Below the pieces are notes generated by a model. It saw only the letters and a list, made by a program, of their open reading frames with translations, ran no database searches and had not been told where the DNA came from. A stretch of 64,000 nucleotides of DNA from Gammaproteobacteria bacterium (GTDB lineage: Bacteria; Pseudomonadota; Gammaproteobacteria; JADZEE01). Position numbers and translations under genes: made by a program. The stretch is from contig CBDDBH010000025.1 of assembly GCA_965225625.1 (NCBI GenBank), positions 96,152-160,151 on the forward strand, in the 5' to 3' direction. Positions 52,885-64,000 of this stretch are shown here, in pieces; position 1 is the first letter of the stretch; every line of letters starts with the position of its first letter.

Positions 52885-55800
52885 ATGGCGCTGAGAAAGA
52901 GCAGTACGAAAACAAACTCCGGGTCTTCGACGAGTAAGAAAAGAACCTCGAGAACCGCCCAAAAGCGTACATCTAAGAGTGCGGATGCTGCGCGGGTCGA
53001 GGATACCGCATATCTGCATTTACTGCAGAAACTCGCAGTTGCCGCCAATGAAGCCTCGACTGTCGAAGAGGCGTTTCAGGTGTGTCTCGACGAGGTGTGC
53101 GCGCTTACAGGGTGGCCGGTGGGCAATGTATACCTGCTAGGCGAAGACGGCACCGGTGATCTCGTTCCGGCTGGGCTGTGGCACCTCGACAAACCCCGGA
53201 AGTTCAAAACCTTTCGGGACATCACCGAAAAGACGCGGTTCGCGCCGGGTATTGGTCTGCCCGGCCGCGTCCTGGGCAGTGGTGAGCCATTGTGGGTCAC
53301 CGATGTCACTCAGGACCCCAATTTCGCTCGCGCAAAGCACGCCGAAGATATTGGCGTTAAAGCGGCTTTTGGGTTTCCGGTGCTGGTGGGAACTGAAGTT
53401 ACGGCCGTGCTGGAATTCTTTGCCGTTGACGCCATAGCGCCTGATAAACAATTACTGGAAGTGATGGCGCATGCGGGAACGCAACTTGGGCGGGTCATTG
53501 AGCGCAAACGAGCTGAAGAAGCGCTCAAGGTGGCAAAGGACGCAGCCGAACGCGCTTCGGCTATCGCTAAAACGACGCTTGAGAACACGGGCCAGGGGAT
53601 CCTCATGGTGGATGGCGATGGCCAGATTCTCGTGCACAACGATCAGATGCTCGACTACGTTGGGGTATCCAAGGAAGCGGCGGCGGACTGTCGTACTTTC
53701 GAAGAATTGCTTGAGGCTGGCAAACAAAACGTCAGTGAAGAATTTGTGCAACGGTCCAGTCGTCTTGCCCAGGAAAGCGGTTATGCGAGCTACGAACTTT
53801 CGACTGAAGACGGCAAGTGCATCGAGATCCGGCAGACTCCGCTCACCGATGGAGGGTTCGTTCGCACCTATACCGACATCACCGAGCGCAAACGCGACGA
53901 ACAAGCGCTACGCGAAAGCGAAGAACGACTCCTGTCCCTTCTCGAAGCGAGTCCAGTCGGCGTGGCGATCACCCGAGACGAAGATTCAAAGGTTGTATTT
54001 TTGAATACGCGTTTTGCTGAGTTGTTCCACATAGAAAAAGACGAAATGCTTGGGCAAAACGCCAAACGACTCTATGCGCATGTCACGGACAGGCAGCCGC
54101 TGATTGAGGAGTTAAGGACCAAAGGCGAAGTCCGCGACATGGAAATGATGATGCAGCGGCCGGATGGAGGTACTTTTTGGGAGTTGATGTCTCTCTTCCC
54201 GATGGCCTACCAGGATCAACCTGCGATTGTGGGTTGGCATTACGACATCACCGAGCGCAAGCAGGCTGAGAAAACACTAACAGAGCGTGAAACAAAGTTC
54301 CGAAGTCTGTTTGAATCCTCGCGCGATGCGGTGTTGCTAATCGACGATGAAGCTTTTCTCATTGATTGCAACGAGGCGACGTTACGGATGTTCGGATCTG
54401 CCAGCATCGATGAAATGCGTAGTACGCACACCGCCGATCGGTCACCGACGGTGCAGCCGAATGGGCAAGCCTCGCGAGTCCTAATTGCCGAAAATAGAGC
54501 AGAAGCTCGTTTGACAGGCAGCAGCTTCTTTGAATGGACCTACCTCCGTGCGGATGGAACAGAATTTCCCGCGGAAGTGCGATTGAGTGCGATGGAGCTG
54601 GACGGGAAACCTGTAACGCAGGCGGTCGTTCGGGACATTACCGAGCGCAAGCAGACTGAAGAAGCCCTGCGCTTCCGTCTTGCATTGGAGCAACTGATAG
54701 GCAAAAGTTCATCTCGCTTTGCTATTGCGGATGATCTGGAAGCGGCTATTGATACGTCGTTAAAAGAGATCGGAGAATTTAGCGGCTCGCAGCGGGCGTA
54801 CCTATTTAAATTCTCAAGCGATGGGAGATTTATGACGAATACCAACGAATGGTGTGCGCCCGGAATAGAGTCTCAAATCGATATGTTTCAAAATCTTCCA
54901 ACGTCCGAATTGGGAGTAATGGATCTAATAAATCGACTTGCATCGGATGGGATTTATTATTGCAGAGATATTTCACAATTACCGCCAGAGCAACATGAAA
55001 TAAGAGAGTTTTTCACAAGTATAGGAATTAATTCTGTTGCGATTTTCCCGATTGTAGAGAATGGGCGCATGGTAGCGTTTACCGGTTTGGATGTTCCTCA
55101 GCGATTAAATGCAATGAGCAACCCGGATATATCACTGCTCAAGGTGTTTGGGGAAGGCTTATATGGCGCCGTTCAACGCCGCAAATCTGAAGACGCGGTC
55201 ATAGTTGCTAAGAATGAAGCAGAGTCGGCATCTGCTATTGCCAATACTACGCTTGAAAATATGGGTCAGGGAATACTAATGGTAGATGCAGACGAAAACG
55301 TCCTCGTCTGCAATGATCAACTGCTCGACTATATCGGCATTGACAAGGAAGCAGCGCGCCAGTGCCGATCCATGGAAGATTTCTTCGAACTCGGGACGGA
55401 AAGCTTTACCGATGAGGGTAAGGAGGAGGCTTTGCATTTCGCGGAAGTGGGCGGCCATGCGACTTGGCAGCGCGGCACCACGTCCGGCCGGGCACTGGAG
55501 GTTCGGCAAAATCCCCTGGCCGGCGGCGGCTTCGTCAGGACCTATACCGACATCACCGAGCGCAAACAGGCTGAAGAGCGACTTCGCTTCCAATTTGAAC
55601 TCGAGCAAATCGTGAGTGCCATATCCGAGCGGTTCGCAGCTACTGGCAATATCGATGTCGCAATCAGTAAATCGCTTGCAGAACTTGGAGAACTCACCGT
55701 CGGCAACCGAGTCTCTGTCTGGCGCATCTCGGCTGACCGCACAACGCGCTCCATGACTCACGAATGGTGCCGGGTCGGTATCGAGCCGCAGATAGAAATG

Positions 55801-63209: not shown

Positions 63210-64000
63210 ATGAAGCTCACATCAATAGAGCAGCAGGGGCTCGCGAACTTCAAAAATGGATTAGCGCCTTCCCTTGGGCCGGACAACGACGTCGACGCGT
63301 GGACGCGCTTCGGGTTGGAGTTTTTAATGGAGGCAGGACGGTCGGTGCGCAGCGCACGGTTGGGTGCGCTGGATCAGTCACTGCAGTTCAAGGCGGACCA
63401 AACCCCATCAGTGCTCATTGAACGCACGATAGAAGAACGTCTCCGTGGGATTTTGAGCACCTGTGCATCTACCGCAGCGGTGTTCGGTGAAGAAGGCGGT
63501 GGGCAGCTAAAGCGCCGCGGGATAACAGTAGCCATCGATCCTATTGATGGAACCTGGTCGTTCCTGAGCCGTAGCGAGACCATCACCACGAGCCTTGCTA
63601 TGTTCAAAGACGCACAGGTGTTTCTCGGGATGATTTCAAATCCGGCCACGGGCGAGATCGGCTACGCATCACCGGGTAACCAGCCGCGATTATTGCAGTT
63701 TTCGGTGTTTGGGGAGGATACACAAGGCACCACTCTTCCTTTACAACCGGTTGGGAAACGGGTGCTCCTGGTGAATGCACACCCTAGCCGTGGTGCCGGG
63801 CCGTTATTCGAACGGCTTTTCGCGGCGTGGAACGGCGAGCAATTGCAGATGGTTAAGGCGGTTGGTGGCTCTCCGTCCTGGGGTTTGTTCGAAGCCGCAA
63901 AGGGGGCTTTCGTCTATGTTAACCTTTGGTCGCAACGGCGTTCCGATCCATTCGATCTCGCTGCAGGAGCGACGTTGCTAAGAGCGGCAGGTGGAGACGT
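63210..64000 (+). CDS. Inositol-monophosphatase/CysQ-family phosphatase; 3' partial, runs off the window
   Basis: VAIDPIDGTWSF (DPxDGT) and DPFDLAAGATLLRAAGG (WDxAAG-like). The start lies 11 nt after the upstream stop. Confidence 0.65.
   Translation, partial: MKLTSIEQQGLANFKNGLAPSLGPDNDVDAWTRFGLEFLMEAGRSVRSARLGALDQSLQFKADQTPSVLIERTIEERLRGILSTCASTAAVFGEEGGGQLKRRGITVAIDPIDGTWSFLSRSETITTSLAMFKDAQVFLGMISNPATGEIGYASPGNQPRLLQFSVFGEDTQGTTLPLQPVGKRVLLVNAHPSRGAGPLFERLFAAWNGEQLQMVKAVGGSPSWGLFEAAKGAFVYVNLWSQRRSDPFDLAAGATLLRAAGGD

Follow-up and report, generated by a model that had tools for sequence, protein, structure and literature searches.

A three-domain protein with an APH/TCAD9-type kinase core and degenerate isochorismatase-like and NUDT9-type flanks, paired with an IMPase-family phosphatase among partner-switching genes

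The NUDT9H domain of the TRPM2 channel binds ADP-ribose without hydrolysing it (PMC5671594), and residues D1431 and R1433 of TRPM2 are required for the response to ADP-ribose (PMC5299621). A second Nudix-derived sensor is found in NrtR, a Nudix-related transcriptional regulator of NAD metabolism. Partner-switching cascades that act on outputs other than sigma factors are represented by Pseudomonas HsbR/HsbA and Vibrio SypE/SypA. Here we analyse a 64,000-nucleotide stretch of a gammaproteobacterial contig (the window; CBDDBH010000025.1, positions 96,152 to 160,151, assembly GCA_965225625.1), which carries a gene fusing an isochorismatase-like domain, an APH/TCAD9-type kinase and a NUDT9-type Nudix domain, followed directly by a gene for an IMPase-family phosphatase. 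Each part comes from a known family, and there are precedents for pseudo-Nudix sensors as well as for partner switching without a sigma factor. A literature search covering TCAD9, NUDT9 in bacteria or with partner switching, isochorismatase and NAD/ADP-ribose systems found no description of the three-domain architecture, of its IMPase pairing or of its role as a partner-switching output, in agreement with an original prediction, made from the DNA alone, which did not recognise the domain combination as a described enzyme. The proteins of the NARP1-3 NAD-rebuilding pathways are different from those of this module.

The fusion protein and its neighbour are interpreted here as a ligand-regulated small-molecule kinase and an IMPase that together form the output of a partner-switching cascade, a composite model to which we give an even chance of being right. 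Judged by their residues, the isochorismatase-like and Nudix domains have lost the canonical catalytic residues of their parent NAD-breakdown enzyme families. The two genes and the domains of the fusion are positioned in the window as follows.

60620 to 63199, plus strand: three-domain fusion gene, 859 aa if the TTG start is used
60620 to 61264, plus strand: domain 1 of the fusion, aa 1-215, isochorismatase/nicotinamidase fold
61313 to 62419, plus strand: domain 2 of the fusion, aa about 232-600, TCAD9/APH-type kinase
62426 to 63199, plus strand: domain 3 of the fusion, aa 603-859, NUDT9_N cap and Nudix fold
63210 to 64000, plus strand: IMPase-family phosphatase gene, 5' 263 codons, continuing past the window end

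A homologue search of 5.8 billion proteins returned at least 361 matches, the best 120 of which are nearly all full-length at 50-60% identity and have in common the precomputed Pfam set TCAD9, APH, NUDT9_N and NUDIX. An alignment of 28 homologues gives a mean column identity of 64%. Their source names are only "ADP-ribose pyrophosphatase", "NUDIX domain-containing protein", "phosphotransferase" or "hypothetical", and NCBIfam holds no equivalog for the fusion protein. When one genome per GTDB species was scanned, 67 loci were obtained, 66 of them in metagenome-assembled genomes (MAGs) and one in a Kitasatospora isolate (L069) whose match is to the Nudix part alone. The loci come from about ten phyla, mostly Gemmatimonadota, which are over-represented in the set, with further lineages in Acidobacteriota, Gamma- and Alphaproteobacteria, Acidimicrobiia, Planctomycetota, Myxococcota, Verrucomicrobiota and Armatimonadota; the Bacteroidota members of the family show about 40% identity. 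The three-domain architecture is conserved far beyond chance and, because full-length homologues are widespread, a frameshift origin is excluded. The doubt attached to the original prediction, that the fusion might be unique to this genome or created by a frameshift, is resolved on both counts in favour of a real gene. An alternative start is given by database entry P0001, which begins at GTG 60623, one codon later, for a product of 858 aa, and is preferred because it better fits the homologue consensus M-x-T-I-I. A metagenomic protein of 1228 aa (P0147) was considered as a Rosetta stone joining fusion and IMPase and was rejected, as its alignment shows Arg-rich out-of-frame middle stretches; rather than a genuine fusion of two genes, it most likely represents an open reading frame (ORF) that runs across sequencing frameshifts in a high-GC genome.

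Domain 2 matches Pfam TCAD9 at 81.9 bits (cutoff 40) together with APH, Choline_kinase and RIO1. Its kinase elements comprise the Gly-rich loop GGYSGS at 254-259, K279, E289, HGDLNLKN at 439-446 (nt 61934-61957) and D459 of IDW. Across 168 family sequences, the set used for all residue conservation figures given here, the Gly-rich loop, K279, E289, H439-G-D441-L-N, N446 and D459 are at least 95% conserved. By these residues the kinase core is catalytically intact and its catalytic apparatus complete, and in a full-length AlphaFold 2 (AF2) model the kinase part has a pLDDT around 90. The nearest solved structures are APH-clan kinases for small molecules or peptides, with match scores of 16.5 for an APH-like protein and 16.4 and 16.0 for methylthioribose kinase; other close folds are choline-kinase-like proteins, PsiK, maltokinase, N-acetylhexosamine kinase, fructosamine-3-kinase and LxmK. 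The TCAD9 model was defined from vWA-MoxR-VMAP (ternary conflict) systems and probably originates in the work of Kaur et al. The kinase described here differs from other TCAD9/APH-type kinases in being flanked by isochorismatase-like and Nudix domains, without the vWA-MoxR-VMAP context.

Domain 1 has the three-layer alpha/beta isochorismatase fold, although its match to Pfam PF00857 (15.2 bits, E 0.024) lies below the cutoff of 27. With domains 2 and 3 assigned as APH/choline-kinase-type and NUDT9-type, the three folds named in the original prediction are confirmed. The catalytic Asp, nucleophilic Cys and metal ligands of PncA and the isochorismatase-like cysteine hydrolases are all replaced in the fusion family. 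In an alignment with Mycobacterium tuberculosis PncA, whose sequence was entered by hand, and with distant relatives, D8 corresponds to a nearly invariant G10, the nucleophilic C138 (in G-I-A-T-D-H-C-V) corresponds to R145 in GCHTDGRV (family pattern G-C-H-T-D-x-R-V), and the metal-site Asp/His ligands are absent. No Asp, Lys or Cys in the domain reaches 95% conservation, while E33, G39, G41, G47, H167, S171 and H177 are invariant. C140 and H141 of the GCHTD motif were considered as a relocated catalytic dyad and rejected, several family members having G, S or T at position 140. A profile search of 1.84 billion representative proteins with domain 1 gave 180 matches. Beyond the fusion family these include proteins made of an isochorismatase-like and a TCAD9 domain, some with nothing further and others with a C-terminal dual-specificity/tyrosine-phosphatase-type domain matching the CDKN3, Tc-R-P, PTP-SAK and PTP-NADK models, and one protein that combines Pkinase with the isochorismatase-like domain. 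The distant relatives with or without the phosphatase domain keep PncA-like QNDF and metal-site motifs, with Lys at the Cys position. Their genomic surroundings are unrelated to those of the fusion loci, and therefore the partner-switching and IMPase context is specific to the Nudix-bearing family.

Domain 3 contains the NUDT9_N cap (PF25969, precomputed match). In a PDB profile search its best sequence match is human NUDT9 (1q33, E 5.5e-22, residues 614-839), and the NUDT9H domains of TRPM2 channels are matched at 1e-19 to 4e-15 (human TRPM2, E 2.8e-17); the best structural match of the Nudix domain is NrtR, an ADP-ribose-binding regulator. The NUDT9 signature N-P-x-G-R-T-G-x-x-G-R-G-x-L-x-x-W-G-x-N is retained as NPRGRTGIAGRGMLGGWGAN, and N683, P684, G686-G689, G692-G694, W699 and N702 within it are at least 95% conserved. 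The D-P-R-N-T-D-N-A-W-[MIV]-E motif is represented by an invariant D776-x-R778-Q-T-D-H-A-W-V-E, in which D776 and R778 align to D1431 and R1433 of TRPM2. Both of the motifs quoted in the original prediction, HGDLNLKN...FIDW and NPRGRTGIAGRGMLG, are found in the translation of the fusion protein. The Nudix box, aa 737-759 (nt 62828-62896), reads GFLFSGETAEQAMSRIALSKVGC and departs from the canonical G-x5-E-x7-R-E-U-x-E-E-x-G-U. In the window protein RIALSK replaces REUxEE (box G-F-L-F-S-G-E-T-A-E-Q-A-M-S-R-I-A-L-S-K-V-G) and all three glutamates are gone, with G737, E743 and R751 retained. Across the family, the Glu of RE, at position 752, is replaced by V or I in 148 of the 168 sequences and is kept in none, position 755 has no conserved Glu, and position 756, which is Lys in the window protein, is Glu in 72%. 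A HMMER alignment places the family box, with the pattern R-[I/V]-L-x-x-E, on K-R-I-L-R-Q-E of human TRPM2. Human NUDT9 and the stand-alone NUDT9-like protein of Kitasatospora share the NUDT9_N cap, the GRTG..GRG..WG.N signature and the RQTDHAW motif with the fusion family, but keep intact boxes, REFGEE and RELREE respectively. Because this stand-alone relative with RQTDHAWV keeps RELREE, the box decay is confined to the fusion family. From these replacements, domain 3 is predicted to split ADP-ribose into AMP and ribose 5-phosphate very weakly or not at all.

The domain thus resembles TRPM2 NUDT9H in its homology, in the same box decay, in the Asp/Arg pair and in being attached to an effector that is not a hydrolase, and the fusion gene often adjoins a cation-channel gene. 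The two differ in that TRPM2 is joined to its channel, whereas the fusion protein is joined to a kinase and the neighbouring K+ and MscS-type channels with cyclic-nucleotide-binding (CNB) domains are encoded by separate genes; the window protein has also lost the last box glutamate. The NrtR sensor is not of the NUDT9 subtype, and it is coupled to a DNA-binding domain without a kinase or partner-switching context.

These replacements bear directly on the activity first proposed for the protein, in which an amidohydrolase, a kinase and an ADP-ribose pyrophosphatase would together degrade or recycle an NAD- or ADP-ribose-type signal, with the IMPase finishing the reaction. The three folds themselves, the descent of all three from families that act on NAD breakdown products, the tight IMPase linkage and the retention of G737, E743 and R751 are as such a trifunctional enzyme would have them. 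However, the Asp/Cys catalytic residues and the metal site of the cysteine hydrolases are absent, and the REUxEE glutamates are all lost in the window protein, the first two family-wide, while the nearest stand-alone relative keeps them. Of the three active sites, only the kinase has complete motifs, and we consider a trifunctional enzyme very unlikely; with catalytic residues missing from two domains, degradation or recycling of a nucleotide signal by three active sites is not supported.

The IMPase gene starts 10 nt after the fusion stop, and its full product, seen in a second assembly (L002), has 298 aa. It matches Pfam Inositol_P at 63.9 bits (E 2.1e-17, cutoff 27), above threshold, so that the IMPase/CysQ-family call made on this gene was correct, and the metal and substrate motifs GEEGG, DPIDGT and FDLAAG are present, corresponding to the family patterns E-E, D-P-[IL]-D-[GS]-[TS] and [WF]-D-x-A-A-G. 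No NCBIfam equivalog (HisN, CysQ, SuhB, NADP phosphatase) is reached: the best score, 52.8 bits for HisN, compares with a cutoff of 275, and every other match is weaker still and well short of its cutoff. Of the 54 loci that continue beyond the 3' end of the fusion gene, about 50 have an IMPase homologue no more than 3 kb away, usually directly downstream and on the same strand, and the fusion gene pairs almost obligatorily with an IMPase-family phosphatase gene. In one of the four loci that lack it, an acidobacteriotal MAG (L004, 12561-16040), the slot of the IMPase is held by a 788-aa paralogue that combines isochorismatase-like, TCAD9 and DSP-PTPase domains, a non-homologous phosphatase domain in place of the IMPase; a RibD-like deaminase/reductase gene comes after this paralogue. 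The ENA copy of the window contig, a metagenome contig of 682 kb (L001, 12588-13705), differs from the window from 63897 on. Compared with L002 (11183-12079), the 3' part of its IMPase gene contains a frameshift and a duplicated stretch, giving 253 and 120 aa instead of 298 aa, which looks like an assembly error in that copy.

The surroundings of the fusion gene were compared by calling ORFs in the 67 loci, reducing them to a non-overlapping set, clustering the proteins and building a hidden Markov model for each cluster with Pfam-annotated representatives; the resulting counts rest on in-house ORF calls on MAG contigs that vary in length. Of the 51 loci in which 6 kb or more of flanking sequence is available, 42 carry partner-switching genes. 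In 46 of the 67 loci the fusion has a PP2C homologue within 10 kb; these phosphatases are often fused to an RsbW-like HATPase_c_2 domain and bear varying sensor domains (REC, PAS, FHA or SBP-dCache). An RsbW-like kinase is present in 41 of the 67, and equally in 41 a highly conserved single-domain STAS protein with the serine-containing motif ISSAGLRVLL is encoded, usually just upstream. Gemmatimonadota loci additionally carry stressosome-like genes (dCache-HAMP-STAS, protoglobin-STAS, STAS and HATPase_c_2-PP2C). No sigma factor family was found among the annotated clusters present at five or more of the 67 loci. In L074, an operon of overlapping genes encodes an FHA-PP2C, a STAS protein, a 1014-aa version of the three-domain protein with an RsbW-like domain joined to its N-terminus, and an IMPase. 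These loci share with partner-switching systems of non-sigma output a PP2C bearing a receiver or another sensor, the frequent fusion to an RsbW-like HATPase_c_2 domain and the single-domain STAS protein with its serine, and differ in that the presumed output is the three-domain kinase and the IMPase; to our knowledge such an output has not been described to date.

The window contig has the complete partner-switching set of PP2C, GHKL-type RsbW-like kinase and single-domain STAS protein with the conserved serine. Past the window end, and immediately after the IMPase gene, L001 13914-19877 contains amtB, glnK (P-II), glnA, a band-7/SPFH gene and genes for an RsbW-like HATPase_c_2 kinase and two STAS proteins; the RsbW-like and STAS genes (18487-19301) lie 5.9 and 6.4 kb beyond the fusion gene. 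The same set is found upstream of the fusion in other phyla, for example in L012, L004 and L067. The order in L012 is amt-glnK-glnA-band7-rsbW-STAS-fusion-IMPase, of which the fusion-IMPase-amt-glnK-glnA-band7-rsbW-STAS order of the window contig is a permutation. Of the 29 loci flanked on each side by 3 kb or more, 16 show linkage to amtB, glnK, glnA and the band-7 gene, in several phyla. Channel genes form a further group of neighbours: in 21 loci a K+ channel with a TAVGYGD filter and a CNB domain with a canonical phosphate-binding cassette lies directly upstream, and 30 of the 67 loci encode CNB-domain proteins, nearly all of this K+-channel type. Two unrelated channel types, both with CNB domains, adjoin the fusion and IMPase genes in different lineages, namely a six-transmembrane K+ channel in L019 (8613-9986) and an MscS-type channel in L014 (5207-7234). 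Among conserved neighbours we saw no nucleotide cyclase. In 17 loci the gene after the IMPase encodes a TrkA_N protein. Clusters C12 (L010, 5201-5608) and C13 (L007, 7743-8159), of about 135 aa and with no Pfam match, lie near the module in 9-10 loci.

A gene embedded in a protein-phosphorylation cascade might itself encode a protein kinase whose target would be STAS, PII/GlnK, glutamine synthetase or a channel, with the degenerate domains as metabolite sensors. The glnK/glnA linkage in 16 of 29 well-flanked loci and the weak sequence matches of the fusion protein to RIO, Bud32 and Kdo kinases agree with such a role, as does the fact that LxmK, one of the top structural matches, phosphorylates a peptide. 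Nevertheless, nearly all close structural relatives are small-molecule kinases, STAS already has a dedicated RsbW-like kinase, and the obligate partner is of the IMPase family, which acts on small phospho-esters, rather than a protein phosphatase. We therefore regard a protein kinase as unlikely.

Upstream of the fusion gene, the window contains three signalling genes and an intergenic gap.

52885 to 58848, plus strand: hybrid sensor histidine kinase gene, 1987 aa (ORF table and Pfam)
58845 to 59204, plus strand: single-domain response-regulator receiver, 119 aa (Pfam Response_reg 6.9e-28)
59201 to 60394, plus strand: receiver-PP2C (SpoIIE-type) serine phosphatase, 397 aa (Response_reg 3.8e-31, SpoIIE 7e-57)
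60395 to 60619, no strand: intergenic gap, 225 nt

By Pfam the hybrid kinase comprises several PAS and GAF domains, HisKA, HATPase_c and two receiver domains, and the receiver-PP2C of the window, which is the partner-switching phosphatase of the module, is without a fused HATPase_c_2 domain. The hybrid kinase and receiver genes overlap by 4 nt, as do the receiver and receiver-PP2C genes, and the layout of 4-nt overlaps followed by some 225 bp before the fusion gene is as the original prediction described it. An Rfam scan of the 225-nt gap returned no RNA family and a promoter scan no plus-strand match. The predicted tie between the fusion gene and these signalling genes holds through the PP2C, whose homologues recur near the fusion. 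As a conserved order, the proposed series of histidine kinase, receiver, PP2C, fusion and IMPase survives in its PP2C and IMPase members, to which STAS and the RsbW-like kinase are added; the giant histidine kinase with the single receiver recurs at only two or three of the 67 loci. L031 (Planctomycetota) and L042 are the only other loci in which a comparable input of a histidine kinase and a REC-PP2C precedes the fusion. The hybrid histidine kinase is the locus-specific part and the input sensor of the window locus. Further upstream, two copies of an IS630-type element (10599-11709 and 50838-51948), of 1,111 bp each and 99.4% identical, each encode a 356-aa DDE_3 transposase on the minus strand, and about 940 bp separate the end of one copy from the hybrid kinase gene. 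Just upstream of that copy is a metallo-beta-lactamase-fold gene (49562-50731, minus strand) with precomputed matches to Lactamase_B and PF23023 (Anti-Pycsar Apyc1).

The position of the IS630-like element, the origin of the TCAD9 model in conflict systems and the status of NAD and ADP-ribose as common currencies of defence systems (PMC9503650) could together point to an anti-phage or inter-genomic conflict system around NAD/ADP-ribose. A PADLOC scan of the fusion, IMPase and PP2C gave no significant match, however, and vWA, MoxR and VMAP genes are absent from the neighbour clusters present at five or more of the 67 loci, effector genes likewise not being among the conserved neighbours. Those neighbours are housekeeping and signalling genes (amtB, glnK, glnA, band-7, channels, PP2C, STAS), and the synteny is stable across about ten phyla. 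A conflict system is in our view extremely improbable.

The proposed model has the fusion protein as a ligand-regulated small-molecule kinase with an APH/TCAD9-type core, whose two degenerate flanking domains would bind a ligand or substrate of ADP-ribose or ribosyl-nucleotide type without hydrolysing it. Since both have lost their canonical catalytic residues, the flanking domains most likely bind rather than hydrolyse, and by analogy to TRPM2 NUDT9H and NrtR we infer that they act as sensor or ligand-binding modules. The kinase and the translationally coupled IMPase would form an opposing pair that sets how far one small metabolite or signal is phosphorylated, with the IMPase presumably reversing the kinase reaction. 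The pair would in turn be the output of the PP2C, RsbW-like kinase and STAS cascade, which lacks a sigma factor, with dephosphorylated STAS relieving an RsbW-like inhibitor of the kinase. In this step STAS and RsbW would act on the three-domain protein as such pairs control sigma factors elsewhere. At the window locus the signal would enter via the PAS/GAF hybrid histidine kinase and pass to the receiver-PP2C. The CNB-domain channels and amtB-glnK-glnA suggest ion and nitrogen homeostasis as the physiological field, which does not thereby define the mechanism.

The substrate of the kinase and IMPase is probably of ribose or ADP-ribose type, because both degenerate domains descend from enzymes of the two halves of cleaved NAD and because ribose and sugar-hydroxyl kinases are among the closest folds. 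One particular form of the kinase/phosphatase model would take NAD(H)/NADP(H) or ADP-ribose/ribose phosphates as the substrate, in a non-canonical cycle resembling that of NAD kinase and NADP phosphatase. In its favour, the sensor-like domains both trace back to enzymes binding the two NAD halves, the closest folds include that of methylthioribose kinase, which phosphorylates a ribose hydroxyl, and NCBIfam gives a weak match to an IMPase-type "bifunctional NADP phosphatase/NAD kinase" (E 0.099). The C-terminal domain of the distant relatives and of the L004 paralogue furthermore matches "DSP-PTPase fused to NAD+ kinase". The nicotinamidase-like pocket nonetheless has no metal site and the pyrophosphate-contacting residues of NUDT9H are not conserved, and this particular cycle, although plausible as one form of the model, appears quite unlikely.

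Several points weigh against the model of a regulated kinase and IMPase as partner-switching output. Every functional step in it is inferred. The TRPM2 pyrophosphate and adenine contacts His1346, Thr1347 and Tyr1349 (His-Thr-x-Tyr) are not kept, the fusion protein having GANPAVG, and therefore the ligand of domain 3 may not be ADP-ribose itself. One box glutamate, at position 756, persists in most of the family, and some Nudix enzymes with atypical boxes are active. In domain 1, E33, H167, S171 and H177 could constitute a new catalytic site and not a binding site, and the PncA reference against which its catalytic residues were compared is the hand-entered sequence. AF2 confidence is low for aa 599-700, so that the interdomain geometry is not trustworthy. 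The RsbW fusion occurs in one representative only (L074). Finally, the fusion gene may be transcribed apart from the signalling genes, given the 225-nt gap before it with one weak terminator-like hairpin (60505-60524).

Public annotations of the fusion family as "ADP-ribose pyrophosphatase" are probably wrong about activity. If the regulated kinase and IMPase model is true, bacterial partner-switching cascades would have a new type of output, in which a metabolite kinase/phosphatase pair replaces the sigma factor. Domain 3 would represent a second, independent case in which a NUDT9-type ADP-ribose pyrophosphatase has turned into a sensor by decay, with box changes as in vertebrate TRPM2. An extended form of the model, which we consider improbable and offer as speculation, has the kinase making a new phosphorylated ribosyl-nucleotide messenger (for example phospho-ADP-ribose) and the IMPase destroying it. 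The level of this messenger would be set by partner switching and the two pseudoenzyme sensors and read by CNB-domain channels, coordinating K+ and ammonium handling (amtB-glnK-glnA) in what would be a bacterial equivalent of ADP-ribose/TRPM2 signalling, assembled from separately encoded parts. The four-gene module of L074, encoding PP2C, STAS, the RsbW-kinase fusion and IMPase, would offer a compact handle for seeking a new small-molecule signal. The carrier phyla, among them Gemmatimonadota, Acidobacteriota and Bacteroidota, are known almost only from metagenomes, and the module would be tied to nitrogen assimilation and ligand-gated K+ channels in at least ten phyla.

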